A stretch of 64,000 bases of DNA from Methanobacteriota archaeon (GCA_005878515.1 VBLZ01000097.1:7634-71633), one strand, 5' to 3'. Shown: positions 5,444 through 57,060, counted from the first letter of the stretch. Notes: generated from the letters alone by a model not told the origin. Program-made: numbers and translations.

Positions 5444-6907
5444 CTAGCTTTGGCCGTCGCGATGGGCGGGCGGTGGTGTGGCTCGTCCCAGTTGTTCCCG
5501 AACCATTCGGTTCGCGATTTCCAGGAACTTCTCCTCGCTCCCCGGAGGGATCGTCGCGCCGGCCGCCGCATGGTGACCGCCTCCCTGGCCCCCGACGGCC
5601 ATGCTGGCCACCTGCATGACGGCCGCGAGATCCAGCCCGCGGGCCACCAGCTCCCGCGTCGTCCGCGCCGAGACCTTGATGCCATCGTCCGCTTGCGCGA
5701 ACGCGATGATCGGCAGGTCTTTCGTCGCGCCGTCTCGGTTGAGGGCCATGCTCGCAGCGATCCCGACCACGGTGTCGCGGATCCGGTCCGCCGCATGGAA
5801 GTACTGAAGCGCTTCCATCTGCGTGATGCCGGTCTCCTCGATCGTCTCCATCGAGTCCACCAGATACTCGCGGTGGCCGCGGAGGAGCCGGAGCGCCTGC
5901 GCGAGGTACTCGTCCCGATCGCCGCGGCACACGCGGTATCCGACCTCCGGTTGGTCGTACCGTCCGCACGCGTTCATCAGGGTCCCGAACTCCTTGGCAT
6001 CGCGCGTCGGACTCCCGGCGGGTTCTCGCGGCAGGGTGTATGTCTCCCCCGCGAGGCGCTCGACCTCCTTGATTCCGCAACCGCGTTCGAGCATGTGGGC
6101 GACGAGCGCGGAAACGACGCGCTGCTTCTCGCCTCGGTCGAGGTCCGACCAGCTCCGCCAGTGGTCCTCGATCTTCAGGTCGACTCCCTGCTCGAGGAGG
6201 AACGCGATGCACGCCTCCTCGTTCCCGCTCAGGCGGGGGATCCACGGGTCCGTTGCGTACTGGAGCATCTTGTACGCGGGCCGGGTCTCCCGACCGAAGA
6301 GACGGAGATCGATCTGGGCCTCGAGGACGCCGGCCGCGATCCCATCGGCGAGGATCGTGCGGTTGTAGCCGGAGAGCCGCCGGAACTCCTGATCCTGGAC
6401 ATCGCCCACGGCGCCGACGACCGCGATCGAGGCGAGGTCAACGTTCTTCGGGGAAAGCGCTCTCGCCACCGCGTACGCGCAGCCCGCGCCGCTCGCGACG
6501 TCGGAGCCTTCGCCTTCGAGATGCGGATTCAACATCAAGACCCGATCCTGGGATTCCGTGAAGCGAACGAGATCGCTCCGCAACGCTTTCGGGACCTCTC
6601 GTTCCGTCGGGACATGGTGGTCCGTGATGACCGCGTCGAGCCCGTGCAGCGCGTGCAACATCCCGGCTCCCAGGTCGATGAACCAGACGAGCGGCGTCCC
6701 TTTCCGCTTCAATTCCGTGAGCACGGCTTCGTCCAGCTTCTTGACGAAGGCCACCTCATGGGAGATGCCCGCTCGATCCAGGGCCTCCGAGGCAATCGCT
6801 CCTCCCGTGATGCCGTCGGTGTCGATGTGGGTCACGATCCGGACGAAGGGCGCGGGGCGCAGGCGCTCCGCGATCTCCTGAGCGACGGCCTCCATCGCGC
6901 CACCCAC
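5444..6907 (-). CDS. DHH/DHHA1 phosphoesterase (archaeal RecJ/NrnA-like)
   Basis: A 487-aa protein containing an aspartate pair (HIDTDG), a DHH motif (AVITDHH) and the DHHA1 GGGH motif (GGQGGGHHAAAG). Confidence 0.85.
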   Translation of the reverse strand: MGGAMEAVAQEIAERLRPAPFVRIVTHIDTDGITGGAIASEALDRAGISHEVAFVKKLDEAVLTELKRKGTPLVWFIDLGAGMLHALHGLDAVITDHHVPTEREVPKALRSDLVRFTESQDRVLMLNPHLEGEGSDVASGAGCAYAVARALSPKNVDLASIAVVGAVGDVQDQEFRRLSGYNRTILADGIAAGVLEAQIDLRLFGRETRPAYKMLQYATDPWIPRLSGNEEACIAFLLEQGVDLKIEDHWRSWSDLDRGEKQRVVSALVAHMLERGCGIKEVERLAGETYTLPREPAGSPTRDAKEFGTLMNACGRYDQPEVGYRVCRGDRDEYLAQALRLLRGHREYLVDSMETIEETGITQMEALQYFHAADRIRDTVVGIAASMALNRDGATKDLPIIAFAQADDGIKVSARTTRELVARGLDLAAVMQVASMAVGGQGGGHHAAAGATIPPGSEEKFLEIANRMVREQLGRATPPPAHRDGQS

Positions 6908-6921
6908 CGGGAGGCAAACGC

Positions 6922-7407
6922 ATGAATCTTTGGGAGGGAGCCGCGGACGAGGTCGCCTCGCTTTTCCGAGAAGAACGGATATCCGAGGAGGGCCTTGGTG
7001 GCGATGTGCTTCATGTGACGGCCACGGGCCTGATCGCCCACGACGGGCGCGTCCTCCTGGGGAAGCGGACGAGCACGGTTCGATTCGCGGGCATGTGGGA
7101 CGCCTTCGGCGGACATCTGGTCCCCTGCGAGGAACCCTCGGCCGCTCTGGTCCGCGAGCTTCAGGAAGAGTTGGGCATCACGGCGCTCCGGCCCCGGTTC
7201 CTCGGGATCTATGAGGACATCGATCCGACGTCCAAGGATCTCTTCCGTCACTACCTGTTCTTCGTCACCCGCTGGAGTGGGGATCCGAAAATCACGAACG
7301 AGGAGCACTCCGAGGTCCGTTGGTTCACCCCCGAAGAAGCGGAACAACTGAATCTCGCGCCGAGCCTCAAGGACGCCATTCGGCGCATCCTCCCAAAGAA
7401 ACCTTAA
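6922..7407 (+). CDS. NUDIX hydrolase
   Basis: A perfect Nudix box is present: GGHLVPCEEPSAALVRELQEELGI (GX5EX7REUXEEXGU). Confidence 0.9.
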   Translation: MNLWEGAADEVASLFREERISEEGLGGDVLHVTATGLIAHDGRVLLGKRTSTVRFAGMWDAFGGHLVPCEEPSAALVRELQEELGITALRPRFLGIYEDIDPTSKDLFRHYLFFVTRWSGDPKITNEEHSEVRWFTPEEAEQLNLAPSLKDAIRRILPKKP

Positions 7408-7438
7408 TCGCGGCGCATGTGTTCAATCGGCCGAGCTT

Positions 7439-7858
7439 ATGGTCGACGAGAAGCAGATTAAGAAAATCCTGAGCGACATCCGGACGATTGCCGTCGTCGG
7501 CTGTTCCAAGGATCCCGCGAAGGACGCGCACCGCGTCCCGAAGTACATGCAGATGAATGGCTACCGGATCATCCCGGTGAATCCGACCGCGGCCGAGATC
7601 CTCGGTGAGAAGGCCTATCCGTCCCTGGATGCCGTCCCGATTCCGTTCGACGCCGTCGACATCTTCCGCCCCTCGGCGGACGTGCCGCCGATCGTGGACC
7701 AGGCCGTCAAGACCCCGGCGAAGGTCATCTGGCTCCAGCTCGGGATTCGCAACGAGGACGCCGCACGGAAGGCGCAGGCCGCGGGCAAGATCGTGATTCA
7801 GGACCGCTGCATGATGCGCGACCACGCGCGGCTATTCGGCAAGACGATCCTCGAATGA
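7439..7858 (+). CDS. CoA-binding domain protein (YccU/YneT-like)
   Basis: A 139-aa protein with IRTIAVVGCSKDPAKDAHRVPKYMQMNGYRIIPVNP, the succinyl-CoA-ligase-like CoA-binding fold. Confidence 0.8.
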   Translation: MVDEKQIKKILSDIRTIAVVGCSKDPAKDAHRVPKYMQMNGYRIIPVNPTAAEILGEKAYPSLDAVPIPFDAVDIFRPSADVPPIVDQAVKTPAKVIWLQLGIRNEDAARKAQAAGKIVIQDRCMMRDHARLFGKTILE

Positions 7859-15497: not shown

Positions 15498-15554
15498 GGA
15501 AAGGATAATGCCTTCGCTGCCGCATTGAGCACCGGCGTGGCTGCGTCGAGGAAA

Positions 15555-16373
15555 ATGTCAAGCGCGGGATCACCGAACGTCCTTGGCAAGCTCTCGTACG
15601 TCCTCGCGAGCCGCCAGCGTGAGAAAGTCCTCGCGGCCGTGGTCCCGCGCCCGCAGACACCCGGGCAAATTGCGAAGCAGACGGGCCTTCATCTGTCCCA
15701 CGTGAGCCGCACGCTGGGGGAGTTGTCGCGGACCGATCTCATCACGTGCCTATCCGGCGAACGCCGCGGGAAGTTGTACGCCGCCTCGAATCTCGGCCAC
15801 GCCGTGTTCGCGGAGCTCGCGGACTCGCGCGGAGATCGACTCATCTCCCCGATGGCCCGGGGCAGTCACTTCCACAACTACCACCACTGGATCGCGGTCC
15901 ATCATGGAAAGGCGGCCGCGGACGAGGTGCTCATCGAGATCGGCCTGGATCCGGCGCACCTCGATGCGGAAGAATGGTATCCCCTGCGTGCGGCGCTCGA
16001 CGTGCTCGACCAGATCGAGGCCCGGTTCGGAGACGGCACGTACGATACCATTCGTCGGATGGCCCGCGAAGAAGTGGGGAACTTCCCTTCCGTCCGGCGG
16101 CTCGTCCGCCGCGGGCTCCCGTTCCCGATTTTCCTGGAGCTCTCTCCGAACGCCTATGCGAGGGAGTACAACCACGGCCGGCTCGAGGTGGATGTCCAAG
16201 AACGCCGGGCGGTGATGCGCAACTACGACTGGATGAGCAGCCCAGCGCGGTGCGCCGCCCGGCTCGGGGGGTACGAGGGGACGCTCACCCTGCTCGCAAT
16301 GAACGGGACCGTCACGAAGGTCGCATGCATGTTGCGCGGAGCCCCGTACTGCGGCTATCGGATCGACTGGTGA
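15555..16373 (+). CDS. Winged-helix transcriptional regulator with a C-terminal sensor (V4R-like) domain
   Basis: The N-terminal HTH is …LASRQREKVLAAVVPRPQTPGQIAKQTGLHLSHVSRTLGELSRTDLI…, and the C-terminus ends …VACMLRGAPYCGYRIDW. The ATG at 15555 has an AGGAAA spacer, and the ORF track starts at TTG 15525. Confidence 0.55.
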   Translation: MSSAGSPNVLGKLSYVLASRQREKVLAAVVPRPQTPGQIAKQTGLHLSHVSRTLGELSRTDLITCLSGERRGKLYAASNLGHAVFAELADSRGDRLISPMARGSHFHNYHHWIAVHHGKAAADEVLIEIGLDPAHLDAEEWYPLRAALDVLDQIEARFGDGTYDTIRRMAREEVGNFPSVRRLVRRGLPFPIFLELSPNAYAREYNHGRLEVDVQERRAVMRNYDWMSSPARCAARLGGYEGTLTLLAMNGTVTKVACMLRGAPYCGYRIDW

Positions 16374-16546: not shown

Positions 16547-17096
16547 TTACGGTTCCTCGTGATTCTCGCGGGTCCCGTACGGGGTCGAGTACTTGTGCGT
16601 CTCCCGGATCCGTTCGACGCCGTCGATCTCCTTGACATACTCGGCGACCACGGCCGGGACGAGGGATTCCCAGTCGCCTCCTTTCAACATTCGCTGGCGG
16701 ACGACGGTCCCGGAGAGCCGCTCGCGGTCCAACAGGGGGGGCGAGAGTACCTTGAGGCCGTGTTCCCGGAACAAGCGCACTACGAGATCCGAATTCGTGT
16801 AGACGCTGTCAAAGCGGGGCACGAGCGAGGTCACGTGGCTCACCCACACACTGTGGACGTGGGTGTCCGGGATCGGCACGATGTGATAGTTGTGGATCCC
16901 CTCCGCGTCGAGGGCCCGTTTGATCATCTCATATCGCTCGCCGGCGGTGAACGGATTCTCCCCGGTGTGGCTGTACTGGGCCGATCCGATCCCCACGATG
17001 ATCTCGTCGTTCGACTCGAGGATCCGCTTCACGGTCGCGAGGTGACCCCGATGGAACGGCTGGAACCGACCGATGAAGAATGCGCGCCCGCTCACT
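16547..17096 (-). CDS. nadM: Nicotinamide-nucleotide adenylyltransferase (archaeal NMNAT)
   Basis: VSGRAFFIGRFQPFHRGHL carries the archaeal NMNAT HXGH-type motif. The GTG start at 17096 was chosen. Confidence 0.9.
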
Positions 17097-17247
17097 CGTC
17101 GTCCTCTCCGAGGAAGTGGTCGATGTACGGGCACTCGATCGTCAAGAACATGCGGCAATGGACGCACATACCGTCGTCGTCCGCAGGTGCGAGGGCGGGG
17201 CTGGATTCATAACAGGGCATCGGTTCGGAGAACTCGGAGGGATCCAT
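17092..17247 (-). CDS. Small Cys-rich protein (possible zinc-binding)
   Basis: MDPSEFSEPMPCYESSPALAPADDDGMCVHCRMFLTIECPYIDHFLGEDDE (about 51 aa) sits exactly in the gap between the lon stop and the nadM start, with a 4-nt overlap onto nadM. Confidence 0.3.
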   Translation of the reverse strand: MDPSEFSEPMPCYESSPALAPADDDGMCVHCRMFLTIECPYIDHFLGEDDE

Positions 17248-17275: not shown

Positions 17276-19261
17276 TCAGTGGGGCACTGCGGTCGGGCCC
17301 GGCTTGTCCGGCGTAATCTTCGGGACCAACGCCACGAGTTTGCTAATGAGCCCGGATTTCTTGGGACCCACGAGCGCCTGTTCCAGGACCTCACTCAGCG
17401 TGTCCACGGGGACGATCTCGATCTTCCCCTGGTAACGATCTTCCAAGAGGACGTCTTTCAAGTTGGCGCGGGGAATGACGACCTTCCGGATCCCCAGTTC
17501 CGCCGCGGCCTCGATCTTCGCGGTCACACCGCCGACCGGGAGGACCTGGCCGCGGACGCTCAGCGAGCCCGTCATCGCGACGGTCTGGTTGACAGGAACC
17601 TCTTCGAGGGCGCTGATGACGGCCGTCGCGACCGAGATCGACGCGCTGTCGCCTTCGGTCCCCTCGCGGGAGCCGACGAACTGGACATGGATGTCGTGGT
17701 TGGAGATGTCCTCGCCGGTGTACTTCTTGATGAGGGCCGAGACGTTCTCGACCGCCTCTTTCGCGATGTCCCCCAGGCGACCCGTGGCAATGATGCGCCC
17801 ACCCTGTTTCGCCTGAGCCGGCGTCACTTCGGCGGCGATGGGCAGGACGATGCCACTGAATTCCGCCATCGAGTTGTCGCCGATGAGGACCGCCAGGCCG
17901 TTGACCATGCCGACGATCGCGCCTTCCGTGATGAACGTCTGATACTCCTTGCCGCGTTCGATCATGCGGTCGGCGACCTGTTGCTCGAGCGACCGCGCGA
18001 TCCGCTTCGCGTTCAGGACATGCTTCGCGGTGACGAGGGGCGTCGACTCTTCTTGGGCGATGTCGCCGGCGACGCGGATGAGCCCTCCGAGTTCGCGGAG
18101 CCGCAGGGTCAACTGACCCCGGCGGCCTGCTCGGCGCTGTGCCTCCCGCAGGATTTCGAGCACCGCGGTCCGGTCGAAGTGCGGAATCTTCCGGTCCTTC
18201 GCGACCTCTTGAGCAACGAACCGCACGAGCTTGAGTCGATTCTCGTCCGAATCGGGCATCGTGCTCTTCATGTAAATCTCGTACCCGTACCCGCGAATCC
18301 GAGAGCGCAATGCCGGGTGCATGCCCTGGACCGCGTCCAGGTTGCCCGCGGCGACGAGGATGAAGTCGCACGGCACGGCTTCCGTCTTCACCATCGCGCC
18401 GGAGGACCGTTCGCTCTGACCGACGATGGAGAACTTCTTCTCCTGCATCGCGGTCAGCAGGCTCTGCTGGCTCTCCATGCGGAGCACGTTGATCTCGTCG
18501 ACGAACAGGACGCCCTTGTGGGCCTTATGAATCGCGCCGGATTCGACGCGCTCGTGCGCCGGCGTCTCGAGCCCGCCACTCTGGAACGGGTCGTGTTTGA
18601 CGTCCCCGAGGAGCGCGCCCGCGTGGCTCCCGGTCGCATCGACGAACGGCGGCATCTCGTCGGGCGTGTGGCTCACGAGGAGCTTCGGGACCATGAGGTT
18701 CTCTTGGCGATGCCCGGTGTACCGCGTGGCGATGTAGATGATCGCCGCCACGAGGATGCCGAACAGGATGATGTTCGGCGCGTCGGGTCGGAACTGCGGC
18801 GTCTCGGATCCCCATTGATACGAGAGGATGACGCTCAAACCGATGATGAAGAAGACGATCGTCATGACCATGGAGGCCTTCTGTTCCCGTCGTTGCATCG
18901 CCTCCGCCTTCTGCGCGTTGACGATTTCGCGTCCCTTCCCGGCGGGCACGACGCGGATCTTGGGCTCGTTCGGATCTTCCGGATTGTGGTAGACGATGAT
19001 GTCTTGGAGGTCGTCGCGCGGCAGCATTTCCGTCATCGACCGGGCGAGCATCGACTTGCCCGTGCCCGGATCGCCGATGAGCATCACATGCCGCTTCTGC
19101 TCGGAGGCCTTCCGGATGACCTCGACGGCTCGCTCTTGACCGATGACCTGGTCGACGAGCCGCTCGGGGATCTTGACCTCCGCCGTGGACCGGAAATCGA
19201 CCTTGTTAATCCACGTATCCACAGGGGGGAGCTCTTCAGGCTCTCCCACCGTCTCCACCAT
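17276..19261 (-). CDS. lon: Archaeal membrane-bound ATP-dependent Lon protease (LonB)
   Basis: A 661-aa protein with the Walker A motif IGDPGTGKSM, a TM insertion (…IVFFIIGLSVILSYQ…IILFGILVAAIIYIA…) inside the AAA+ domain, and a C-terminal Lon protease domain with the catalytic Ser region (…MTGSLSVRGQVLPVGGVTAKIEAA…). Confidence 0.95.
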   Translation of the reverse strand: MVETVGEPEELPPVDTWINKVDFRSTAEVKIPERLVDQVIGQERAVEVIRKASEQKRHVMLIGDPGTGKSMLARSMTEMLPRDDLQDIIVYHNPEDPNEPKIRVVPAGKGREIVNAQKAEAMQRREQKASMVMTIVFFIIGLSVILSYQWGSETPQFRPDAPNIILFGILVAAIIYIATRYTGHRQENLMVPKLLVSHTPDEMPPFVDATGSHAGALLGDVKHDPFQSGGLETPAHERVESGAIHKAHKGVLFVDEINVLRMESQQSLLTAMQEKKFSIVGQSERSSGAMVKTEAVPCDFILVAAGNLDAVQGMHPALRSRIRGYGYEIYMKSTMPDSDENRLKLVRFVAQEVAKDRKIPHFDRTAVLEILREAQRRAGRRGQLTLRLRELGGLIRVAGDIAQEESTPLVTAKHVLNAKRIARSLEQQVADRMIERGKEYQTFITEGAIVGMVNGLAVLIGDNSMAEFSGIVLPIAAEVTPAQAKQGGRIIATGRLGDIAKEAVENVSALIKKYTGEDISNHDIHVQFVGSREGTEGDSASISVATAVISALEEVPVNQTVAMTGSLSVRGQVLPVGGVTAKIEAAAELGIRKVVIPRANLKDVLLEDRYQGKIEIVPVDTLSEVLEQALVGPKKSGLISKLVALVPKITPDKPGPTAVPH

Positions 19262-19453
19262 CTTCTGACCGGGCCCTCGCGTGGGTCGCTTTCGAATACA
19301 CGACCCTTCTACTTAAACACTTTGACCTTGAAAACCCGAATGAGACTGCGCGGGGCTCGAGTTTCTCCATATGCGAGTCATCGGTCGACACCGCAAATTC
19401 GTCGCAGTTCGATTCTCTCGTGAGGTCGAATGAGTGCGAATCGCAATCGAACG

Positions 19454-19987
19454 TCACGCTGCGCGCTTCGCAATCATCTGCGCGAGCTTCGCGAACGCGA
19501 CCTCGACGTTCTCGCCGGTCTTCGCGGACGTGAACAAGAACGGGGCCTCGTGCGCCTCCGCCGCGCTCTGCACGTCGGCCTTCGTAATCGCCATCTGGTT
19601 CTTCAGATCCGCCTTGTTCGCCAGGAATTCGATCGGGACGTTCCCGGTGACCTTTATCACGGCGGCGACCCAATCCTCGAGGTCATCGAGCGTCTCCTTC
19701 CGCGTCACATCGCACACCGCGAGGACGCCCTGGGCCCCGTGGAAGTACGCTTCTTTGAGCAATTCGCGGAAGCCTTTCTCGCCCATGATATCCCAGATCG
19801 TCATGTCGACGTCCATGCCGCCGTTCGCGCCGTCGACCTTGATCTCTTTCTTCGAGACCTTCGCGCCGAGCGTGGAGATGTATCGGTCGTCGAACTGGTC
19901 CTGGATGAACCTCCGGATCAGGCACGTCTTGCCGACTGCGCCCTCTCCGACGAGGCAGACCTTGACTTTCATCTTTTGGCGGTCCAT
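19454..19987 (-). CDS. Ras/Rab-like small GTPase (paralog 1)
   Basis: G1 motif GEGAVGKT, switch-I Thr (STLGAK), G3 WDIMGEKG, G4 NKAD and G5 SAK are all present. The protein is 177 aa. Confidence 0.9.
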   Translation of the reverse strand: MDRQKMKVKVCLVGEGAVGKTCLIRRFIQDQFDDRYISTLGAKVSKKEIKVDGANGGMDVDMTIWDIMGEKGFRELLKEAYFHGAQGVLAVCDVTRKETLDDLEDWVAAVIKVTGNVPIEFLANKADLKNQMAITKADVQSAAEAHEAPFLFTSAKTGENVEVAFAKLAQMIAKRAA

Positions 19988-20027
19988 CAGAATCCCTAGA
20001 GCCGGTGCGTCGCTCGCACACGTCTCA

Positions 20028-20038
20028 GGTTATAAAGG
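20028..20038 (-). promoter_or_regulatory. TATA-like element upstream of GTPase paralog 1
   Basis: The plus-strand sequence ggttataaagg (minus strand cctttataacc) lies about 45 nt upstream of the ATG at 19987. Confidence 0.35.
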
Positions 20039-20102
20039 CGTTGCCCATCGGTTATCTATCGAGATAATGGCGGGGGCTCGGAGGGCTTGCGCCTCGATGG
20101 CG

Positions 20103-20642
20103 TCACTCGTTTCCGCGGTTCCCGATCGCATCGGCGAGGGCGCGGAACGCCTCGGCCACGCCGGCCCCGGTCTTCGCCGACGCGAGGAACTGAGGTGCGC
20201 TGTGGATCGACCCCATCCGGCCGAGTTCTTCCTGGCTCACGACGAGCCGCTCGGTCAGGTCCATCTTGTTCCCGAGGAACACCATCGGGACGTTGCCGAC
20301 CTGCTTTCGGATCATCTGGACCCAGTTGTTGAGATCGTAAAACGTATCCTTCCGCGTGAGGTCGCAGACCGCGATCACGCCTTGGGAGCCTTCGAAGTAC
20401 GCGTCGCGGAGTAAGGCCCGGAATCCCTTTTCGCCCATGATGTCCCAGACCATCATGTCGAGCGTCGCGGGGGCGCCCTTCCAAACGACATCGACCGACT
20501 TCTTCGTGACCTTCGTGCCGACCGTGGCGATGTACCGGTCGTCGAACTGGTCTTGAACGAACCGCTTGATGAGAGAGGTCTTGCCGACCGCGACATCCCC
20601 GACGAGGCAGACCTTGGCCTTGAGATGCTTCTGGCCAGCCAT
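20103..20642 (-). CDS. Ras/Rab-like small GTPase (paralog 2)
   Basis: Motifs GDVAVGKT / WDIMGEKG / GNKMD / SAK are present. The start was chosen at MAGQKHLKAKVCLVGD by alignment with the two other paralogs. Confidence 0.9.
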   Translation of the reverse strand: MAGQKHLKAKVCLVGDVAVGKTSLIKRFVQDQFDDRYIATVGTKVTKKSVDVVWKGAPATLDMMVWDIMGEKGFRALLRDAYFEGSQGVIAVCDLTRKDTFYDLNNWVQMIRKQVGNVPMVFLGNKMDLTERLVVSQEELGRMGSIHSAPQFLASAKTGAGVAEAFRALADAIGNRGNE

Positions 20643-20722
20643 CGTGGACGTCGCCATCACGGGCCACCCATCGAGCGCGGTCTTATGTACCGTGCAGACG
20701 CGAGTATCGCCCCTGATAATTC

Positions 20723-21286
20723 TTACTCTTCAGGGAGCACTTTTCGCGCGTAACGCTCCTTCGCGACCCGCTCGGCAAGGGACTGGAACGCATTCTCGAC
20801 GTTGACGCCGGCCTTCGCCGACGTGAAGTGGAACGGACTGTCGTAGGCGCGGGCGGCCTGGACCATGTCGTCCTCGCTGATCTGAATCTGGTCCTTCAAG
20901 TCGATCTTGTTGCCGAGGAACTCGATCGGAATCTTGCCCGTGACACTGTAGACGCCCTCGATCCAGTCGTCGAGGTCTTCGAGGGTCTTCTTCCGGGTGA
21001 CGTCGCAGACCGCAAGGATCCCGCGGGCGCCGTAGAAGTACGCCTCCTTGAGCAGCTCGCGGAAGCCTTTCTGGCCCATGATATCCCAGATTGTCATGTC
21101 GATCTTCAATTCGCCCGAGCCGTCCGGCGACGAGGAGGTGAGCTCCTTCTTTGAGACCTTCGTGCCGAGCGTCTGGATGTACTTATCATCGAAGTTCTCC
21201 AGCACGAATCGGCGGATGAGAGAGGTCTTGCCAACTGCAGCCTCACCAACGAGGCAAACTTTCACTTTCATCCGCTTGACTTCCAT
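20723..21286 (-). CDS. Ras/Rab-like small GTPase (paralog 3)
   Basis: Motifs GEAAVGKT / WDIMGQKG / GNKID / SAK are present. The protein is 187 aa. Confidence 0.9.
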   Translation of the reverse strand: MEVKRMKVKVCLVGEAAVGKTSLIRRFVLENFDDKYIQTLGTKVSKKELTSSSPDGSGELKIDMTIWDIMGQKGFRELLKEAYFYGARGILAVCDVTRKKTLEDLDDWIEGVYSVTGKIPIEFLGNKIDLKDQIQISEDDMVQAARAYDSPFHFTSAKAGVNVENAFQSLAERVAKERYARKVLPEE

Positions 21287-21460
21287 GAAGAACCGCCCAG
21301 CGACGTGGCATAGCCTGCGAAGCCCGCTTAAAAGTTATGGGAGTGTTATCACCGACGATACATCGGAACCCGCTCGCCATGAGTGATGCGTGTCCGTGCG
21401 CCTCGCGCGTGGCGAAAGGTTTTGTATTTTCCGCGTCATGTCGTCGACGAAGGCGCGACG

Positions 21461-21625
21461 ATGTGTGACGAATACTACGACGCGCGCATGAAAGCGTTCT
21501 GGCGGGCTCTCGCGGAAGAGGACGAACGAGCGATCGACGAGGAAGAGGAAAAACCGATCGCGCAGCCGATTGTCCTCGAGATCGCCGAGCCACACAAACC
21601 GAAACAGAAACCGCTCGCCCGCTGA
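21461..21625 (+). CDS. Small acidic hypothetical protein (54 aa)
   Basis: Translation reads MCDEYYDARMKAFWRALAEEDERAIDEEEEKPIAQPIVLEIAEPHKPKQKPLAR. A TATA-like element, ggttttgtattttcc, lies about 30 nt upstream. The ORF is followed by nested hairpins. Confidence 0.35.
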   Translation: MCDEYYDARMKAFWRALAEEDERAIDEEEEKPIAQPIVLEIAEPHKPKQKPLAR

Positions 21626-21684
21626 ACCGCTCGAGACGGACGCCCGCGACCGAATTCCCCGGGAGGCGGAGCCTCCGTCTCCAA

Positions 21685-21698
21685 AGAATTATATACGT
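21685..21698 (+). promoter_or_regulatory. Strong TATA box; candidate promoter of the ribosomal-protein superoperon
   Basis: The sequence ccaaagaattatatacgtcc is the best TATA match in the window. It is preceded by a purine-rich BRE-like stretch, and a roughly 175-nt leader follows before rpl3. Confidence 0.5.
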
Positions 21699-21874
21699 CC
21701 CCTCCATAGAGACGGCCCAACGCGTCGACCAGACGCCCCCGGGCAATCCCTTCGTGGATCCCGGAAATGCGGGCCCGATTCTTCTGGCCTCGCAGGCAGC
21801 GTCACGGTGTCGCGACCGAACGCCCGCGGCTCATCGTACGCGAGGAGAGACCACTCTCCGCGGAGGAGTGGCCA

Positions 21875-22879
21875 GTGCCGAAGGAACACCGACCGAGACA
21901 CGGATCGATGGGCTTTTCGCCCCGCAAGCGGAGCGAGAGCCCGATTCCGCACTTCTCGAGCTGGCCGGACGTGGACGGCGGCACGCCTCGGCTCCAAGGA
22001 TTCGCCGGCTACAAGGCGGGCATGACGCACGCGATTGTCGTCGACTACCGACCGACCTCGACGACCTCGGGCCAAGAGGTCCAGGTCCCCGTGACGGTCG
22101 TCGAGGTGCCGCCAATGCGGGTCGCCGCCGTCCGATTGTACCGGCGCGTGCCGGAAGGGCTCAAGACCGCCGCGGAGGTGTGGGCGGCTCAACTCGAGAA
22201 GGAGCTTCGCCGCGTCTTCCCGATCCCGAAAGACTACGACGCGGAGGAAGCCTGGTCGAAGGTCGACGCGGCCGCCATCGACGAGGTTCGGGTTATCACG
22301 TACACGCAGCCGTCGCTCGTCACCGGCGTCCCGAAGAAGAAGCCGGACCTGATGGAAAATCGGGTGGGCGGCGGATCGATCGAGGACCGGATCAAGTACG
22401 CACGCGGACTCCTGGGAAAGGAGATTCCCGTCACCGAATTTTGCCGCGAGGGTTCGATGGTCGACGTCGCGGCGATCACGAAGGGGAAAGGCTGGAAGGG
22501 CCACCACACGCGCTGGGGCACGCGTCTCCTGAGTCACAAGAACTCGAAGCACCGACGGAACATCGGAACGCTCGGGAATTTCCAGCCCGGGTACGTCCGC
22601 CCGACCGTGCCGCAAGGGGGCCAGTTCGGCTACCATCAACGGACGGAGTACAACAAGAGGATCCTGAAAATCGGAGACAAGGCGGACGAGGTCACGCCGG
22701 AGGGAGGCTTCCTCCATTACGGGAATCTGCGGAATCCGTTCGTCCTGCTGCATGGATCGATTCCGGGGCCAACGAAGCGCCTTATTCGATTCCGCGATGC
22801 GGCTCGCGGCGGATACGTGAAGCTCGAGAAATCCCCGGACCTCACGTACATCTCCCGCCAATCGAAGCAGGGGGTGTGA
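21875..22879 (+). CDS. rpl3: Ribosomal protein L3
   Basis: VPKEHRPRHGSMGFSPRKRSE… is the archaeal L3 N-terminus. The GTG start at 21875 has a GGAGGAG sequence 7 nt upstream. Confidence 0.9.
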   Translation: MPKEHRPRHGSMGFSPRKRSESPIPHFSSWPDVDGGTPRLQGFAGYKAGMTHAIVVDYRPTSTTSGQEVQVPVTVVEVPPMRVAAVRLYRRVPEGLKTAAEVWAAQLEKELRRVFPIPKDYDAEEAWSKVDAAAIDEVRVITYTQPSLVTGVPKKKPDLMENRVGGGSIEDRIKYARGLLGKEIPVTEFCREGSMVDVAAITKGKGWKGHHTRWGTRLLSHKNSKHRRNIGTLGNFQPGYVRPTVPQGGQFGYHQRTEYNKRILKIGDKADEVTPEGGFLHYGNLRNPFVLLHGSIPGPTKRLIRFRDAARGGYVKLEKSPDLTYISRQSKQGV

Positions 22880-23828: not shown

Positions 23829-24106
23829 AGCCCCACGAGATCCTCATCCATCCGTACGTCACAGAGAAGACGCTCAACATGCTGCAGGGCACGCCGGCGC
23901 AGAACCTGAAGGACGGCAATCGCCTCGAATTCCTCGTGCGGCGAGAAGCGACGCGCTCAGAGGTCAAGAAGGCTTTCGAAGAGCTCTTCGAGGTGAAGGT
24001 CGCGAAGGTCAACACGTTCGTCCGGAAGGACGGGAAGCATGCGATCATCAAGTTGAAGGCAGGCTTCTCCGCGGAGGAGATCGGCATGCGGATCGGGGTG
24101 TTTTGA
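23825..24106 (+). CDS. rpl23: Ribosomal protein L23
   Basis: A 93-aa protein with MKPHEILIHPYVTEKTLNMLQ… It overlaps the L4 stop by 4 nt. Confidence 0.95.
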   Translation: MKPHEILIHPYVTEKTLNMLQGTPAQNLKDGNRLEFLVRREATRSEVKKAFEELFEVKVAKVNTFVRKDGKHAIIKLKAGFSAEEIGMRIGVF

Positions 24107-24939
24107 TGGGGAAGAATCTTCGTTCCCAGCGACGCGGTCGCGGCACCTCGCCGACCTACCGCTCCCCGAGCCATCGTCATCCGGGCCTCGTCACCTATCC
24201 GCGCTTCCGCGGTGCGGGTGTGGTCACTGATATCTTCCAGGCGCCCGGTCACACGGCGCCCCTCGCGCGCGTTCGATTCGGCAGTCAAGAGGTCCTCATG
24301 ATTGCCTGCGACGGACTCTCGATTGGTCAACCGGTCACCCACGGCATGCCGAACGTGGACCGCGGGAACACGTTGCCCCTCCGCGAGATTCCGGAAGGCA
24401 CGTTGGTCTACAACATCGAAGCGATGCCCGGGGACGGAGGGAAGTTCGTGCGGGCTGCCGGAACGCAGGCCGTCGTCGTCAGCCAAGCCGAACGCACGGT
24501 GGTCCAGCTTCCCTCGGGACAGTTCCACACGTTCCACCCGGATTGCCGCGCGACGATCGGCGCGGTCGCGGGTGCCGGCCGCGGTGACAAGCCCTTCACG
24601 AAAGCGGGCAAGAAGTGGTTCTCGTACCGCTCCTTCAGCAAGCCCGCATTCAACGTGCGCGGCGTTGCGATGAACCCCGTGGACCATCCGCACGGCGGCG
24701 GATCCCACCAGCACGTCGGGAAGCCGTCGACCGTGGGGTATGACGCTCCTCCCGGCCGGAAGGTCGGCCGGAACGTGCGCGGCGTTGCGATGAACCCCGT
24801 GGACCATCCGCACGGCGGCGGATCCCACCAGCACGTCGGGAAGCCGTCGACCGTGGGGTATGACGCTCCTCCCGGCCGGAAGGTCGGCCGGATGTCCCCG
24901 AAGCCGAAGCGGCTGAAGCTGAAACGACGGAGGTCCTGA
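24103..24939 (+). CDS. rpl2: Ribosomal protein L2 carrying an internal 40-aa tandem duplication
   Basis: The L2 signature …NVRGVAMNPVDHPHGGGSHQHVGKPSTVGYDAPPGRKVGR occurs twice in succession. The protein is 278 aa against an expected length of about 238. Confidence 0.9.
   Translation: MMGKNLRSQRRGRGTSPTYRSPSHRHPGLVTYPRFRGAGVVTDIFQAPGHTAPLARVRFGSQEVLMIACDGLSIGQPVTHGMPNVDRGNTLPLREIPEGTLVYNIEAMPGDGGKFVRAAGTQAVVVSQAERTVVQLPSGQFHTFHPDCRATIGAVAGAGRGDKPFTKAGKKWFSYRSFSKPAFNVRGVAMNPVDHPHGGGSHQHVGKPSTVGYDAPPGRKVGRNVRGVAMNPVDHPHGGGSHQHVGKPSTVGYDAPPGRKVGRMSPKPKRLKLKRRRS
24652..24891 (+). repeat. Perfect 2 x 120-bp tandem direct repeat inside rpl2
   Basis: Positions 24652-24771 and 24772-24891 are identical base for base (aacgtgcgcggcgttgcgatgaaccccgtggaccatccgcacggcggcggatcccaccagcacgtcgggaagccgtcgaccgtggggtatgacgctcctcccggccggaaggtcggccgg). 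The repeat is in frame. Confidence 0.95.
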
Positions 24940-42377: not shown

Positions 42378-43007
42378 GTGAAGGTCGTTGTCTTCGGCGC
42401 GACGGGGGAGACCGGCCGTCTCCTCACGGAACGAACCCTGCGGGCGGGCCACACGGTCACCGCCTTCGTGCGCGATCCGGCCCGGATGCTCATCGTGCAC
42501 GAACGGTTGCGCGTGATCCGAGGCGACGTCCTCGACCCTCCTTCGGTTGAGCGAGTGATTCCAGGCCACGATGCGGTCCTCTCGGCTCTGGGGAGCACGG
42601 CCCGCAATCCGGCACCGGTCCTTTCCGAGGGCGTTCAGCACATCCTCGATGCGATGGAACGGTCCCGCGTCCGGCGGATCGTGGCCCTCTCGGCGGCCGG
42701 CGCGCTGGGGGAGTCGGCCGGATTCGCAATCGGGAATGCGGGCCTGCGAATCTTCCGAATGTGGCTGCCGCAGGTCTACCGAGAGCATCGCAAGATGCTC
42801 GACGAACTTCGGCGGCGCGAACTCGAATGGATCGCGGTGCGCGCCGTCCTGTTGACGAACGGCGCAGCGAAGGGTCGCTACCGCATTGCGATCGAGGGAA
42901 TTCCGCGGTGGGGCTTTCGGATCTCTCGCGCCGATGTCGCCGACTTCATGATCCGCCAACTCACGACCGATGAGTTCGTCCGCAAGATGCCCGCGACGGC
43001 GTATTGA
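42378..43007 (+). CDS. NAD(P)-binding NmrA/SDR-like oxidoreductase (atypical SDR)
   Basis: VKVVVFGATGETGRLL is a Rossmann GXXGXXG motif. The protein is 209 aa and starts at GTG. Confidence 0.75.
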   Translation: MKVVVFGATGETGRLLTERTLRAGHTVTAFVRDPARMLIVHERLRVIRGDVLDPPSVERVIPGHDAVLSALGSTARNPAPVLSEGVQHILDAMERSRVRRIVALSAAGALGESAGFAIGNAGLRIFRMWLPQVYREHRKMLDELRRRELEWIAVRAVLLTNGAAKGRYRIAIEGIPRWGFRISRADVADFMIRQLTTDEFVRKMPATAY

Positions 43008-43143
43008 ATCCGTTAGGATTCGCCAGGTAGGTGCACGGGCACCAACGACCGCATGCTTTTATACGGCCACCCAGATGAGTCGACCGCTTCCCGAGGCGAT
43101 GAAGAAGCCTTGGGTGGCCCGAATCCCCGGGAGCGGGGCTGCG

Positions 43144-46100
43144 ATGATCAAGCAGGCGGAGAAGACGTATGCTCCACTTGAGGTGGAGCGACAGGTCCAG
43201 GAATTCTGGGACCGCGCGAAGGTCTACCGGAAGACCGTCGCCGCGCGGGAGAAAGGCGAGGATTTCTTTTTCGGCGACGGCCCGCCGTACACAACCGGAT
43301 CGATTCACCTCGGAAACGTCCTGAACAAGACGATCAAGGATCTCGTCGTCCGCTATCATCGGATGCGCGGCTACCACGTCCGGGACCAGCCGGGCTACGA
43401 CATGCACGGCCTCCCGATCGAGGTCCAGGTCGAGAAGACCCTCGGGATCACGAACAAGAAGGAGATCGAAGAGCTCGGCATCGAGAAGTTCGTGAACACC
43501 TGCCGGACGTTCGCGACGGACCTCCTGCAGACGATGACGAAACAGTTCCAGTCGCTCGGCATCTGGCTCGATTGGGACCGCCCGTACATGACGATCCGCA
43601 ACGAATTCATCGAGGCGGCGTGGTGGACGCTGAAACGCGCCCACGAACACGACTGGATCTACGAGGCGCTCCGGTCCATCCAGTGGTGTTCCCGATGCGA
43701 GACGGCCCTCGCGGACGCCGAAGTCGAGTACTCCGACGAAACGGATCCGTCGATTTACGTCAAGTTCCGCCTCGCCGGCAAGCCGGACGAATCCCTGCTG
43801 ATCTGGACCACGACCCCGTGGACCCTTCCCGCCAATCTCGCGATCGCGGCGCATCCCGATTTCCGGTACGCGAAGGTGAAAATTCCACATGGCAAGAAGC
43901 CCGAGTACGTCTGGCTCATGGAGAGCGCGGTGCCCGACGTCATGGCCCGCGGCGGGGTGACGAAATACTCCGTCGTCGAGACGAGGAAAGGGAGCGACCT
44001 CGTCGGGCTCGCATACCTCCACCCACTCCGGACGAAGCTCCCCTACCAGAAGTCAGCGAAGGGCGAGTGGGTCCACAAGCTCGTCTCCTCGGACACGGTC
44101 GCCGCCGAGTACACGGGGCTCGTCCATTCGGCCCCGGGGCACGGACCGGAGGACTTCGAGCTCGGTCAGAGGCTCGGCCTTCCCGCCTTTTCGCCGGTCG
44201 ACGCGGGAGGCCGTTTCACCGCGGACGCCGGCGCCTACGCGGGCCAGAAGGTGAGGGAGGCGAATCCGGGGATCATCGCGGACCTGCGGGCGGCCCGCGC
44301 TCTCTTCGCGGACGAGACGATCCTCCATGCATACGGCCATTGTTGGCGATGCAAGACCCCGATCTTGTTCCGCGCGACGGTCCAATGGTTCCTCAAGGTG
44401 ACGGACTTCAAACCGAAGATGGTCGAGGAGGTCGGGCGGGTCAGATGGTTCCCGGACTGGGCCGGATCGGCGCGCCAACTCGATTGGACGAGCAACCTGC
44501 GGGACTGGTGCATCTCCCGGCAGCGGTACTGGGGCATCCCCCTCCCGATCTGGAGGTGCGCGAAGTGCAATCACTGGACGGTCGTCGGATCGGCCGAATC
44601 CCTTCGAGGTGCGAGCGGCTACAAGGAAGGAATGGACCTTCACCGGCCCGGCATCGACCGGATCGCGCTCCCATGCGAGAAGTGCGACGGCGAGATGCGG
44701 CGGGTCCCCGACACGGTCGACGTGTGGTTCGACAGCGGCGTCTCGAGCTGGGCGAGCCTCGGCTACCCGGCTCGCGACGACGAGTTCCGCCGCTGGTGGC
44801 CTCAGGACTGGATCGTCGAAGGGCCGGACCAGACGCGGGGCTGGTTCAACTCCCAACTCGCGGCAGGGGTCGTGGCGTTCGACCGGGCTCCGTACGATCA
44901 GGTGCTGATGCACGGTTGGGTGAACGGTCCGGACGGACGGCAAATGCACAAGTCCCTCGGGAACGTCATCGAGCCCGAGACGGTCGTCGACAAGTTCGGG
45001 GTCGATCCGCTCCGATTCTATGTGATCGCCGTGAACGCGCCTTGGGACGACATCACGTTCCAGGAGGAGGGCGTCCGGAACGCGCAGCGGACCTTGAACA
45101 TCCTGTGGAACGTCCTGCGGTTCGCGACGACCTACATGGTCTTGGACCGGTTCGATCCGTTCGCGGCGGACCTCTCCTCGACCGAAGGCCACCTCCGGCC
45201 CGAGGACCGTTGGCTCCTCTCGCGGCTCGAGGGTCTGAAGAAGACCGTGGACCTCGAGATGCGTTCATACAACCTGCACCGCGCGGCCCGCGCGGTCGAG
45301 GCGTTCATCCTCGATGACCTCTCGCGGTGGTACGTGAAGCTGGTCCGCGGGCGGACCTGGACGGAGACCGACAACGGGGACAAGCTCGCCGCGTACCGCG
45401 TGCTCTTCGAAGCGCTGAGTACCCTTGCGATCCTCCTCGCCCCCGTCGCGCCCCACATCGCAGAGGCCATGTATCAGCGCCTCGATGGACGGAAGCTCAG
45501 CGTGCACATGCTCGATTGGCCCGACGTCCGAGCGCAATGGCTTCGGCCCGAGCTTGAGCGGTCTATGTCGATCGTGCAAGAAGAGGTTGAAGTCGTCTCG
45601 AATCAACGACAGAAGGGAGGGCGGAAGCTCCGTTGGCCGCTGAAGCTGATCGCGGTCCGCAGCGCCACACCGGAAGCCGCGGAGGCGTTTGCCGCACTGC
45701 GGAGTATCTTCCTGGACCAGGTGAATGCGAAGGAACTCGTGATCTTGGAACCCGCCGACGAGTTTCCGGGCACCGTCGTCGTCGCGAAGCCCGACGCCGC
45801 GGCGATCGGCAAGGCGTACAAAGCTCTGGCACCCAAGATTGTGAAACTGCTCGGGACCCGGGCCCCGGGCGAGCTGCAAAAGGCGTTCGAGCGCGGTTCG
45901 TACACGCTCCATGCGGACGGGCAGACGTTCGAGATCGAACCGACGATGGTGCGCTTCGAGAAAGCGCTCCCCCCCGAGGTCGTCCGGGTGGAGACGCCTC
46001 ATGGTGAGATCTACCTCGACCTTCGCGTGACGCCGGAGCTCCAAGCCGAAGCGTACGCTCGCGAGATCGTCCGCCGAATCCAGCAGATGCGGAAAGACCT

Positions 46101-56328: not shown

Positions 56329-57057
56329 CTACTCGCGGTAGTCCTCAAGTCGGAGCTGCGGCGGATCGGCCTTCCGTTGGTCGGGCCTTCGAATCCGGCG
56401 TTGCATCTCGTTCTGCACGCGATTGAACGTGTCGATCTCGATGAGTGGCTCATGCTTTCCGCGCTTGATGCCCCCGTTCAGACGGGCGAGGCCGCAGTAG
56501 ACCGGGTTGCTCAAGATGTTCGCGATCGTCTGGCTCGCCCAAGCCCGGCCGGTCTTCGTCCGATACCCGTCCCGGTTGAGCTCCTGGCAGATCTTGGCGA
56601 TCCCCTTGCCCTCGAGGTAGCGTCGGAAGATCAGGGAGACCACACGGGCCTCCTCCTTCTTCAGCTGGAGGATGCCGTCCACGTAGTCGTACCCGTATGG
56701 GCTCGCGTAGGTGAGGAATGCGTTCGCCTTCTTGACGGCGTTGTTCAGGGCTTCGACGCTTTGCAATCCTCGGGCCCGCCGCAGCACCTCGCGCTCGTTC
56801 AGATCCCGCTCCACGCAGAGCCTCCGGAGCGCCTCGTCCTCGGAATCCGAGGCGTAGTGCTGGAGCATCTCGCGGGTCGATCCGAATCGCATGTAGACTT
56901 CCCAGAAGAGGAGGGCGTCGCCTGGAGATCCGTCCACGCAATGCTTGCAAAGGAGGACCTTCTCCCTCCGGACGGTCGGATCCGCGCGGGGGTTCGCGTC
57001 GACCTCGTGGCTCACGAGGTTCTTCGTGCTCCAACACCGCTGACATCGGCCGTCCAT
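56329..57057 (-). CDS. Recombinase-domain protein lacking the serine-recombinase catalytic domain; N-terminal zinc ribbon
   Basis: N-terminal CQRCWS…CKHC, then …ASPYGYDYVDGILQLKKEEARVVSLIFRRYLEGKGIAKICQELNRDGYRTKTGRAWASQTIANILSNPVYCGL…, the large-serine-recombinase 'Recombinase' domain. There is no resolvase N-terminal domain. Confidence 0.8.
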   Translation of the reverse strand: MDGRCQRCWSTKNLVSHEVDANPRADPTVRREKVLLCKHCVDGSPGDALLFWEVYMRFGSTREMLQHYASDSEDEALRRLCVERDLNEREVLRRARGLQSVEALNNAVKKANAFLTYASPYGYDYVDGILQLKKEEARVVSLIFRRYLEGKGIAKICQELNRDGYRTKTGRAWASQTIANILSNPVYCGLARLNGGIKRGKHEPLIEIDTFNRVQNEMQRRIRRPDQRKADPPQLRLEDYRE

Positions 57058-57060
57058 CCG

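Follow-up and report, generated by a model that had tools for sequence, protein, structure and literature searches.

Introduction

Small Ras-like GTPases of archaea have been discussed almost exclusively in connection with the Asgard group and eukaryotic origins. No Thermoplasmatota group is named in the published classifications of prokaryotic Ras-like proteins (MglA, Rup1-3, RasL I-IV, Rag, ArfL, and ArfR), and in 2016 single Rab-like genes were described in a Thermoplasmatales archaeon and in Aciduliprofundum (PMC4915359). Here, we analyze a tandem array of three genes for Rab-like small GTPases in a 64,000-nucleotide stretch of DNA from a Methanobacteriota archaeon (GCA_005878515.1, VBLZ01000097.1:7634-71633), referred to as a whole as the window. 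The genes are named G1, G2, and G3 in coordinate order, and the order of transcription is G3, G2, G1, followed by a gene for archaeal LonB protease; the nucleotide-binding motifs G1 to G5 of GTPases are always called motifs. We consider it fairly probable that the array encodes a co-regulated set of soluble Rab-like switches, specific to Thermoplasmatota, which diverged anciently, differ in hydrolysis chemistry, and act in signalling.

Results

Three Ras superfamily proteins with Rabs as their nearest structural relatives

Three co-directional minus-strand open reading frames (ORFs) of 177, 185, and 187 amino acids occupy positions 19454-21286, exactly where a preliminary description of the window had placed three genes of 177-187 amino acids. 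Pfam Ras (PF00071) was the best match of each product, with E values of 3.4e-39, 3.7e-34, and 3.5e-35 for the G1, G2, and G3 proteins, respectively (118-134 bits against a cut-off of 21.6). Roc was the second-best Pfam family and Arf the third (PF00025; E of 1e-9 to 1e-13), and matches to Gtr1_RagA were weak (E of about 1e-6) and confined to the G domain. Among PDB sequences, the G3 protein was closest to Rab8A and Rab6 (E of 3e-26), and the G1 protein to the Thorarchaeota Rab 7EZB (E of 9e-29) and also to Rab1. An AlphaFold2 model of the G1 protein showed the small-GTPase fold with six strands and five helices (predicted local distance difference test [pLDDT] 82; predicted template modelling score [pTM] 0.82), and the top 50 structures retrieved with this model from the PDB by Foldseek were all Rabs (TM scores of 0.8-0.85; 27-34% identity), among them Rab1, Rab8, and Rab11 with TM scores of 0.82-0.85. 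Measured by similarity, Rabs, not Ras, Rho, Ran, or Arf, are the nearest solved structures. The Ras/Rab-like identity proposed in the preliminary description is thus borne out by the profile search and by the PDB sequence and fold matches. Best matches to translation-type or other non-Ras GTPases, which would have spoken against it, were not found: Era, Der, YsxC, and YqeH models gave only 15-25 bits against cut-offs of 124-307, which rules out a translation-type GTPase, and GTP_EFTU scored under its cut-off. None of the three GTPases matched a family of the PADLOC defence-system models at an E value of 0.001 or below, and a role as a defence system was rejected; LonB gave weak and partial PADLOC matches to AAA/Lon domains only.

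The G1, G2, and G3 proteins are single-domain proteins that end directly after the G domain, and no additional domains were found in them. Their C-termini (...AKRAA, ...GNRGNE, and ...RKVLPEE) show no Cys after helix 5, no prenylation motif, and no hydrophobic or polybasic tail, and the 6-13 residues ahead of strand 1 form no amphipathic helix. The lack of both a lipidation motif and an amphipathic N-terminus suggests soluble proteins without lipid anchors. In the alignment with Rab8A, the segments RabF1-F5 (IGVDF, KLQIW, RFRSIT, YYRGA, and LVYDIT) read LGTKV, DMTIW, GFRELL, YFYGA, and AVCDVT, so that the RabF signature is partial, with about 11 of 27 positions identical. The features of Arf/Sar proteins (an amphipathic N-terminal helix, WDxGGQ, and Arf as the best profile) are absent, as is the C-terminal roadblock dimerisation domain of Rag/Gtr. 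Unlike MglA, the proteins have no Robl_LC7 match among their annotated neighbours, contain no insertion between motifs G1 and G2, and keep the Asp of motif G3. With Rup proteins, compared by their description, they share the small size and the lack of an MglB partner. In summary, the three proteins belong to the Ras superfamily, all of whose defining features tested were found, but they are not Rab sensu stricto, Arf, MglA, or Rag, since defining features fail for each of these. Existing database labels for them are "small GTP-binding protein" or "Rab family GTPase."

Nucleotide-binding motifs and the catalytic residue

Sequences and family alignment agree with the earlier observation that motifs G1-G5 and the switch-I Thr are present in all three paralogs. 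Motif G1 (P-loop GxxAVGKT; GEGAVGKT, GDVAVGKT, and GEAAVGKT in the G1, G2, and G3 proteins) is invariant in the family alignment; the switch-I Thr lies within YI(S/A/Q)T(L/V)G, and motifs G4 and G5 read NKxDL and SAK. In the numbering of the G1 protein, T39, D66-I-M-G69, N124-K-x-D127, and S154-A-K156 are kept to at least 90% in the three orthogroups. Motif G3 is WDIMGEKG in the G1 and G2 proteins and WDIMGQKG in the G3 protein. Alignment with H-Ras places the E/Q of WDIMG(E/Q)KG at the position of Gln61, confirming the assignment of Glu to two paralogs and Gln to the third. The preliminary description had called this motif non-canonical, which holds for the residues around its DxxG core and, in the G1 and G2 proteins, for the catalytic residue; the canonical DxxG core itself is retained.

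The position equivalent to Gly12 of Ras is occupied by Gly in the G1 protein, Val in the G2 protein, and Ala in the G3 protein. Val at this position in Ras blocks the action of GTPase-activating proteins (GAPs), and Gln61 substitutions in Ras are expected to alter GAP dependence too. The intrinsic GTPase activity of Ras is raised by the Q61E exchange (PMC2987813), and by this analogy Glu at the Gln61 position would not necessarily be inactivating.

A set of invariant residues following switch II and within helix 3 is particular to each of the three orthogroups. This is the region that sets partner specificity in Rabs, and by analogy the paralogues may therefore have different partners.

Each GTPase gene has a putative promoter with a shared palindrome

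The gaps between the GTPase genes measure 115 bp and 62 bp, and 192 bp separate G1 from the LonB gene. AT-rich, TATA-like elements in gaps of 60-115 bp had been noted in the preliminary description, and a box was indeed found in each gap (Table 1). Across loci, gap lengths are kept between G3 and G2 (58-82 bp) and between G2 and G1 (82-148 bp), and that between G1 and LonB is variable (85-260 bp or more). The GTPase genes never overlap or abut, unlike the operon genes of the adjacent ribosomal cluster.

Phylogenetic footprinting, based on gap alignments of about 34-42 divergent loci, revealed TATA-like blocks and the half-sites of a palindrome, TATC-N6-GATA, as the only conserved blocks in the gaps. 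The conserved block before G3 reads TaTCg....TGATAAC....cC..AACGTTTA and that before G1 GtTATC......GATAAC.....ccTTTATAA; before G2, AttATCA..g..GATAc is followed by an AT-rich box that is less well conserved than the others. The block before LonB, GGtcAAAg.gTTTAAgtag (34 loci), contains a TATA-like box and no palindrome. A promoter of its own for each GTPase gene, as proposed earlier, is well supported by the presence of a conserved TATA-like box in every gap across about 40 divergent metagenome-assembled genomes (MAGs), and the three GTPase genes probably constitute separate transcription units. The spacing of about 26 nt from TATA-like box to start codon predicts a leaderless or near-leaderless mRNA for G2. 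Rfam gave no match at an E value of 1 or below within 19000-22000, and a structured RNA in the gaps was rejected.

With at most one mismatch, the palindrome was found at a fixed distance before G3 in 44 of 48 three-gene loci and in all 11 loci with four GTPase genes, before G2 in 48 of 50 three-gene loci, and before G1 in 50 of 50. Its distance to the TATA centres is about 20-26 nt on the upstream side, which places it immediately past the transcription factor B recognition element (BRE). The 64-kb window contains four exact copies against 0.10 expected, a number reached in none of 100 shuffles, and three of them correspond to one per GTPase promoter. The fourth, at 59712-59725, is situated within a coding ORF, whose product is a membrane protein rich in Pro and Tyr that contains a zinc ribbon, and is probably a chance occurrence. 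Allowing one mismatch to TTATC-N6-GATAA, no window sites other than the three promoter sites were detected, and a looser operator search of the window returned nine sites against 6.1 expected, with nothing further above background. In 915 kb of related loci, 137 of the 153 exact sites fell within 130 nt upstream of a GTPase start, and several of the other 16 were GTPase promoters cut at contig ends. Upstream of LonB, the best match had two to four mismatches in 60 of 62 loci, which equals background; by the operator criterion, LonB would be a separate transcription unit outside the putative regulon. Conserved half-sites, a freely variable 6-nt spacer, and a constant distance to the start codon form the pattern expected of a binding site for a dimeric DNA-binding protein, and we infer that the palindrome serves as such a site.

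In two four-gene loci, a double overlapping palindrome was observed between a strong TATA box and the start of a gene for a terpene-synthase-like protein (PF19086; locus L073, 4989-5008; locus L069, 4999-5018). A palindrome downstream of TATA is in a repressor-type position, and this gene may be an additional regulon member in the four-gene lineage.

The paralogues are ancient and their order is conserved across Thermoplasmata

A pattern scan covering one genome per GTDB species identified 75 related loci, all from MAGs labelled Thermoplasmata, Thermoplasmatota, Methanomassiliicoccales, or "Methanobacteriota/Euryarchaeota." Every family member carries WDIMGxKG or a one-residue variant of it (217-sequence alignment, including 216 family sequences from the loci). 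The G1, G2, and G3 proteins are 47-64% identical to one another. Orthologues of the array occur in about 60 other MAGs from many studies, and the same three genes are present on 22 independent contigs of the same strain. The order L3, G3-G2-G1-LonB-NMNAT recurs down to lineages whose LonB and L3 are about 71% and 57% identical, respectively, to those of the window, and of the 64 loci with enough sequence, 61 have a LonB start no more than 1.2 kb beyond the last GTPase gene.

In a neighbour-joining (NJ) tree of the orthogroups, rooted on H-Ras and computed without bootstrap, the clades coincide with gene position. The G3 clade comprises genes that are always first in the array and has Gln at the catalytic position in 68 of 68 sequences; the G2 clade, always in the middle, has Glu in 41 of 41; and Glu is found in 61 of 62 members of the LonB-proximal G1 clade. 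G2 is the fastest-evolving of the three paralogues. More distant lineages have four GTPase genes ahead of LonB, the first again of the Gln type and the others with E, D, N, A, or G. That clades and positions coincide carries more weight than the tree itself. Since the clades match gene position across lineages, the duplications appear to be older than the divergence of these lineages, with a conserved layout of one Gln-type gene followed by non-Gln genes. The phylogeny therefore supports diverged paralogs, as does the 47-64% identity, and together with the orthologues in many MAGs this identity rules out an assembly duplication. The local expansion proposed in the preliminary description did not hold up: many Thermoplasmata lineages share the three orthogroups in the same order, and the expansion is neither local nor recent. 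Additional clusters exist elsewhere in some MAGs (loci L079 and L016 come from one MAG, and L077 and L050 from one MAG); no fourth GTPase copy was found in the window.

The GTPase-LonB-NMNAT block always lies at the edge of the ribosomal-protein supercluster, at opposite ends depending on the lineage. In the window lineage it is transcribed divergently from rpl3, and in the four-gene lineages it is located immediately past secY (window versus loci L057 and L073); a gene for ornithine transcarbamylase (OTCase) and a TctA-like gene lie near the block in both the window and L057. The opposite ends of the supercluster imply rearrangement around a conserved neighbourhood.

A large WDIMG family with links to KaiC-type proteins

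At E<1e-30, a profile of the three paralogues matched 688 cluster representatives (clustering at 50% identity). Small eukaryote-like GTPases had been considered patchy in archaea outside the Asgard group, but the WDIMG family proved to be abundant in Thermoplasmatota. Nearly all of the top 150 representatives contain WD[IV][ML]G, and the next residue is most often Q. WDIMGQ is thus the switch-II signature of the family, and Glu is derived. An extension of about 100 amino acids at the C-terminus is common among the members.

Family representative P0152 is a fusion of GTPase and DUF835, and in P0132 DUF835 is N-terminal to the GTPase. A search with P0152 yielded at least 36 clusters at 90% identity combining Ras and DUF835, mostly with WDIMGQK, and about 24 GTPase-TPR fusions. 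The named sources of fusions are all Thermoplasmata, Thermoplasmatota, Thermoplasmatales, or Methanomassiliicoccales except for one labelled [Eubacterium] cellulosolvens. DUF835 is an inactivated KaiC-like (iKaiC) domain with a role in signalling output in archaea (PMC5847659). KaiC-like ATPase genes adjoin both fusion genes examined, and directly upstream of the four-gene arrays in loci L069-L075 and L080 are a KaiC gene and a gene encoding a seven-transmembrane (7TM) protein with two DUF835 domains. The earlier suggestion of a signalling or regulatory module is backed by the iKaiC and TPR fusions at the level of the family; for the array itself we infer such a role. The preliminary description had also stated that no roadblock or longin gene is adjacent, in line with the absence of Robl_LC7 and longin matches among the Pfam-annotated called genes over about 7-63 kb of the window.

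The KaiC-like ATPase gene and the membrane protein gene upstream of the four-GTPase arrays are located at 5307-7720 in L073, and also occur in L069, L071, L074, L075, and L080. The membrane protein has a HisKA_7TM-like N-terminus, two DUF835 stretches, and DUF7504, and resembles a sensor/KaiC-hub cassette. Two large WDIMG-type subfamilies have C-terminal extensions of about 100 amino acids that do not match Pfam. One, including P0143, P0148, P0150, and P0204, shows the pattern DFC..GG.E.AMP(I/V)(I/V)R.QF...G(V/L)D...PTKE; the other, including P0140, P0164, P0174, and P0192, shows a winged-helix-like pattern (...LGxSKxD...LExEGL(I/V)...WxGPxDF...).

Layout of the locus and its surroundings

Positions of the array and its regulatory elements are given in Table 1; annotation of the neighbourhood is based on database gene calls. 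Upstream of the array, on the opposite strand, the L3-L4-L23-L2 ribosomal operon begins. The G+C content of the window is about 64%. Its lineage consists of soil Thermoplasmata MAGs; the same proteins are found on JGI soil contigs and in GCA_001919915, and one related locus (L007; VBMA01000086, "EA_11") is 99% identical to the window.

Table 1. Genes and predicted promoter elements of the GTPase array (positions counted from the first nucleotide of the window)
Feature	Position	Strand	Remarks
G3 gene	20723-21286	-	First in array; 187 aa; some callers start 5 codons later
G2 gene	20103-20660	-	Middle of array; 185 aa; GTG start, ATG 3 nt further downstream
G1 gene	19454-19987	-	Last in array, adjoins LonB; 177 aa
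Archaeal LonB protease gene	17276-19261	-	TIGR00764, 915 bits against a cut-off of 517
Nicotinamide-nucleotide adenylyltransferase (NMNAT) gene	16547-17167	-	TIGR01527, 221 bits against a cut-off of 181; synteny kept, downstream of LonB
Palindrome upstream of G3	21347-21360		Exact match; centre ~67 nt before ATG, ~20 nt upstream of TATA-like box
Palindrome upstream of G2	20705-20718		Starts 4 nt past the G3 stop codon
Palindrome upstream of G1, TTATC-N6-GATAA	20053-20066		Exact match
TATA-like box of G3, TTTTAAG	21327-21333	-	Centre ~44 nt before ATG; AACGTTTA[AT]A in relatives
TATA-like box of G2, TACATAAG	20682-20689	-	Centre ~26 nt before start codon
TATA-like box of G1, TTTATAA	20030-20036	-	Centre ~46 nt before ATG; ccTTTATAA in at least 80% of 38 loci
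TATA-like box of LonB, TTTAAGTA	19310-19317	-	Centre ~52 nt before ATG; no operator

Between G3 and rpl3, a small ORF on the plus strand (21464-21625) encodes an acidic protein of 53 amino acids, or of 80 amino acids from a GTG at 21383 (callers give 54 or 79). For its sequence, MCDEYYDARMKAFWRALAEEDER..., tblastn gave matches in 26 loci at 39-99% identity, and Pfam and NCBIfam gave none. The rpl2 ORF (24103-24939) contains a perfect (100%) 120-bp tandem duplication at 24652-24892 that adds 40 residues, resulting in an L2 protein of 278 amino acids. On other contigs of the same or related strains L2 is called as 237 amino acids, and the duplication in the window is probably an assembly artefact. 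At 42970-47307 (plus strand), a 1,445-amino-acid ORF joins a class-I tRNA synthetase (isoleucyl-tRNA synthetase; tRNA-synt_1, Anticodon_1, DUF5915) in frame with HhH, double zinc ribbon, and DUF835 domains; it represents either an unusual fusion or two genes without an intervening stop, with an internal Met near residue 1120. Finally, two adjacent ORFs at about 56329-57888 (located from 6009-7568 of locus L083), with Resolvase plus Recombinase and Recombinase domains, respectively, resemble a split large serine recombinase. They adjoin the HMG-CoA reductase gene and may be the remnant of an integrated element.

Discussion

The conserved promoters, the palindrome shared by the three genes, and the position-specific catalytic residues suggest how the array might work. 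One dimeric transcription factor, binding just upstream of BRE/TATA, would switch the three genes together. In archaea, a palindromic operator of the TrmBL1 type activates transcription when located upstream of BRE/TATA and represses it when located downstream (PMC4706686), and by this precedent the operator position of the GTPase genes would be of the activator type. The products would be GTP/GDP switches with different hydrolysis, the G3 protein having Gln and the G1 and G2 proteins Glu at the catalytic position, and the G2 protein having Val at the Gly12-equivalent in addition. They might act one after another or together in a hetero-complex, differing in timing or in partners, and would feed protein-interaction networks of the KaiC/inactivated-KaiC type and of the TPR type, not membrane traffic.

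Several points weigh against a co-regulated set of GTPases acting in KaiC-linked signalling. The link to KaiC/iKaiC comes from other family members and not from the window array: no KaiC-like gene was found in the window, and its sole DUF835 domain (46822-47265) is 26 kb away from the array. Upstream of the GTPase-DUF835 fusion genes, the palindrome is absent in both loci checked. A winged helix-turn-helix (wHTH) gene at 15525-16373 encodes an unproven candidate for the regulator, and its conservation beside the array is restricted to the more closely related lineages (21 non-identical loci). In the window, the gaps between the genes, including that between G1 and lonB, show no oligo-T terminators, and read-through transcripts, including into LonB, are therefore possible. 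The NJ tree lacks bootstrap values, and its deep branches are short. Finally, the structure prediction suggested earlier for the altered switch II succeeded for the fold of the G1 protein, but switch I and switch II have pLDDT values below 50, which makes the model uninformative on this region.

The constant neighbourhood of LonB raises the possibility that this membrane-bound protease, which lacks the N-terminal domain by which LonA recognises substrates, has the GTPases as its dedicated regulators or substrate adaptors. The array and lonB would then be a single functional unit, perhaps with some co-transcription. The same-strand LonB gene within 1.2 kb downstream in nearly all loci, including lineages with a LonB only about 71% identical to that of the window, and the lack of terminator-like T-runs between G1 and lonB are in favor of such a unit. 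However, LonB has its own conserved TATA-like box and no palindrome, and the gap that separates it from G1 varies from 85 to 260 bp or more. Other family members, such as the DUF835 and TPR fusions and the second clusters L077 and L079, are not beside Lon, and the literature contains no link between LonB and small GTPases that we could find. Since NMNAT is equally conserved, history alone may account for the synteny. The GTPases may be functionally tied to LonB, for instance by controlling membrane-bound proteolysis, but the linkage may equally be explained by inherited synteny, with NMNAT and the edge of the ribosomal supercluster being just as constant. We regard GTPases dedicated to LonB as possible but unlikely.

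It is tempting to speculate further that Thermoplasmatota, which are far removed from Asgard archaea, evolved a large Rab-like system of their own, at whose core a co-ordinately transcribed array of one hydrolysing Gln-type and two to three Glu/Val-type GTPases with altered catalysis forms a hetero-oligomeric or sequential cascade that couples KaiC/iKaiC hubs to LonB proteolysis at the membrane. Such a cascade is doubtful; if it existed, it would be a prokaryotic multi-GTPase cascade with a logic like that of eukaryotic Rab or Rag proteins, yet of independent origin.

Alternatively, the three genes and lonB might be one ordinary operon, in which the conserved intergenic blocks act at the RNA level in processing, translation, or attenuation. 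The genes are co-directional, the gaps short, and clear terminators lacking, all of which would suit an operon. The blocks themselves, however, consist of a BRE/TATA-like box and a DNA palindrome with a variable spacer, which is the pattern of protein-DNA contacts and not of RNA structure: the 4-bp stem is too weak for RNA folding, and 19000-22000 contains no Rfam match. TATA-to-start distances of 26-52 nt fit archaeal promoters, and overlapping or abutting genes, as in the adjacent ribosomal operons, are never seen in the array. An ordinary operon is thus improbable, and co-regulation of separate GTPase genes through the palindrome is the reading that we prefer.

Multiple paralogues resemble a Rab repertoire, and the nearest solved structures are Rab1, Rab8, Rab11, and a Thorarchaeota Rab. 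One could therefore imagine true Rab-type membrane-identity switches organising an endomembrane or vesicle system in Thermoplasmata. Against this stand the absence of a C-terminal Cys or prenylation motif, of a hypervariable tail, and of an amphipathic helix; the partial RabF signature; the lack of a longin, roadblock, TRAPP, or GDI-like gene nearby; and family fusions to signalling domains (iKaiC and TPR) and not to trafficking domains. Membrane-identity switches are very unlikely here, and archaeal "Rab-like" matches should not be taken as evidence of membrane trafficking.

The location of the array at the border of the ribosomal-protein supercluster, next to the L3 operon and in divergent orientation in the window lineage, and immediately past SecY at the other end in the four-gene lineages, could point to ribosome- or translation-associated GTPases, but the poor scores for Era, Der, YsxC, and YqeH, a lead of more than 20 orders of magnitude for Ras/Rab models, and the absence of RNA-binding or KH domains make this hardly credible. 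That a single gene was collapsed or duplicated by assembly or binning can practically be discounted, considering the low identity of the copies and their recurrence on independent contigs and in other MAGs, even though the window does contain one probable artefact elsewhere, in rpl2.

A co-regulated array of soluble GTPase switches would be a testable system, comprising three small soluble proteins, one 14-bp DNA site, and clear hydrolysis predictions, and would allow the study of prokaryotic multi-GTPase switches and their ties to KaiC-type signalling and LonB. The large and diversified family in another phylum provides a counterweight to Asgard-centred views of archaeal small GTPases, although by itself it resolves no long-standing question.

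Comparison with known systems

Eukaryotic Rabs (Rab1, Rab8, Rab6, and Rab11) are the best sequence and fold matches of the array proteins (E of 1e-26 to 1e-28; 30-34% identity), with the same size and intact motifs G1-G5. In both groups, switch II begins with WD..G and contains FR, and the blocks Y(Y/F)xGA and DxT are present. In contrast to Rabs, the proteins described here have no prenylation Cys or hypervariable tail, only partial RabF1-F5 segments, DIMG(Q/E)KG in place of DTAGQE, and Glu at the catalytic position in two of three paralogues, and no GDI, REP, TBC, or longin partners were seen. The Ras-like and Rab-like proteins of Asgard archaea (Thorarchaeota Rab 7EZB and RasL) are likewise archaeal single-domain proteins without lipid anchors. 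However, they keep WDxAGQ, whereas the Thermoplasmata family has WDIMG(Q/E)K.

Rup proteins (Wuichet & Sogaard-Andersen 2014) are similarly small (150-240 amino acids), not coupled to MglB/roadblock, and uncharacterised, and like the family described here, Rup2 of Crenarchaeota exists in several copies, up to six in one genome. Rup1 occurs in bacteria, Rup2 is confined to Thermoproteaceae, and Rup3 is confined to Heimdallarchaeia. No Rup family has been described with genes in a fixed tandem order, with a split into Gln and Glu types, or with an operator common to the genes. MglA/MglB and Rag/Gtr are partnered or paired GTPases with unequal catalytic sites and illustrate how a mixed set of Gln and non-Gln proteins could work. 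They differ from the array, which has no MglB/roadblock gene nearby, no C-terminal roadblock domain, and no insertion between motifs G1 and G2, and which keeps the Asp of motif G3.

The palindrome resembles the TrmBL1/Thermococcales glycolytic motif (TGM; TATCAC-N5-GTGATA) in its symmetry and its TATC and GATA half-sites; these are 9 nt apart in TGM and 6 nt apart here. No TrmB-family gene was identified in the window, and the similarity may serve as a lead only.

As to KaiC-like/DUF835 hubs, the WDIMG family includes DUF835 fusions in at least 36 clusters and members adjoining KaiC-like ATPase genes, whereas the window GTPases are stand-alone G domains without an adjoining KaiC gene, so that the link is one of family association. 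Literature searches retrieved nothing relevant on the WDIMG motif and nothing linking LonB to small GTPases. Compared with these systems, what is new here is the conserved Gln-then-Glu array, its putative shared operator, and the family-level tie to iKaiC.

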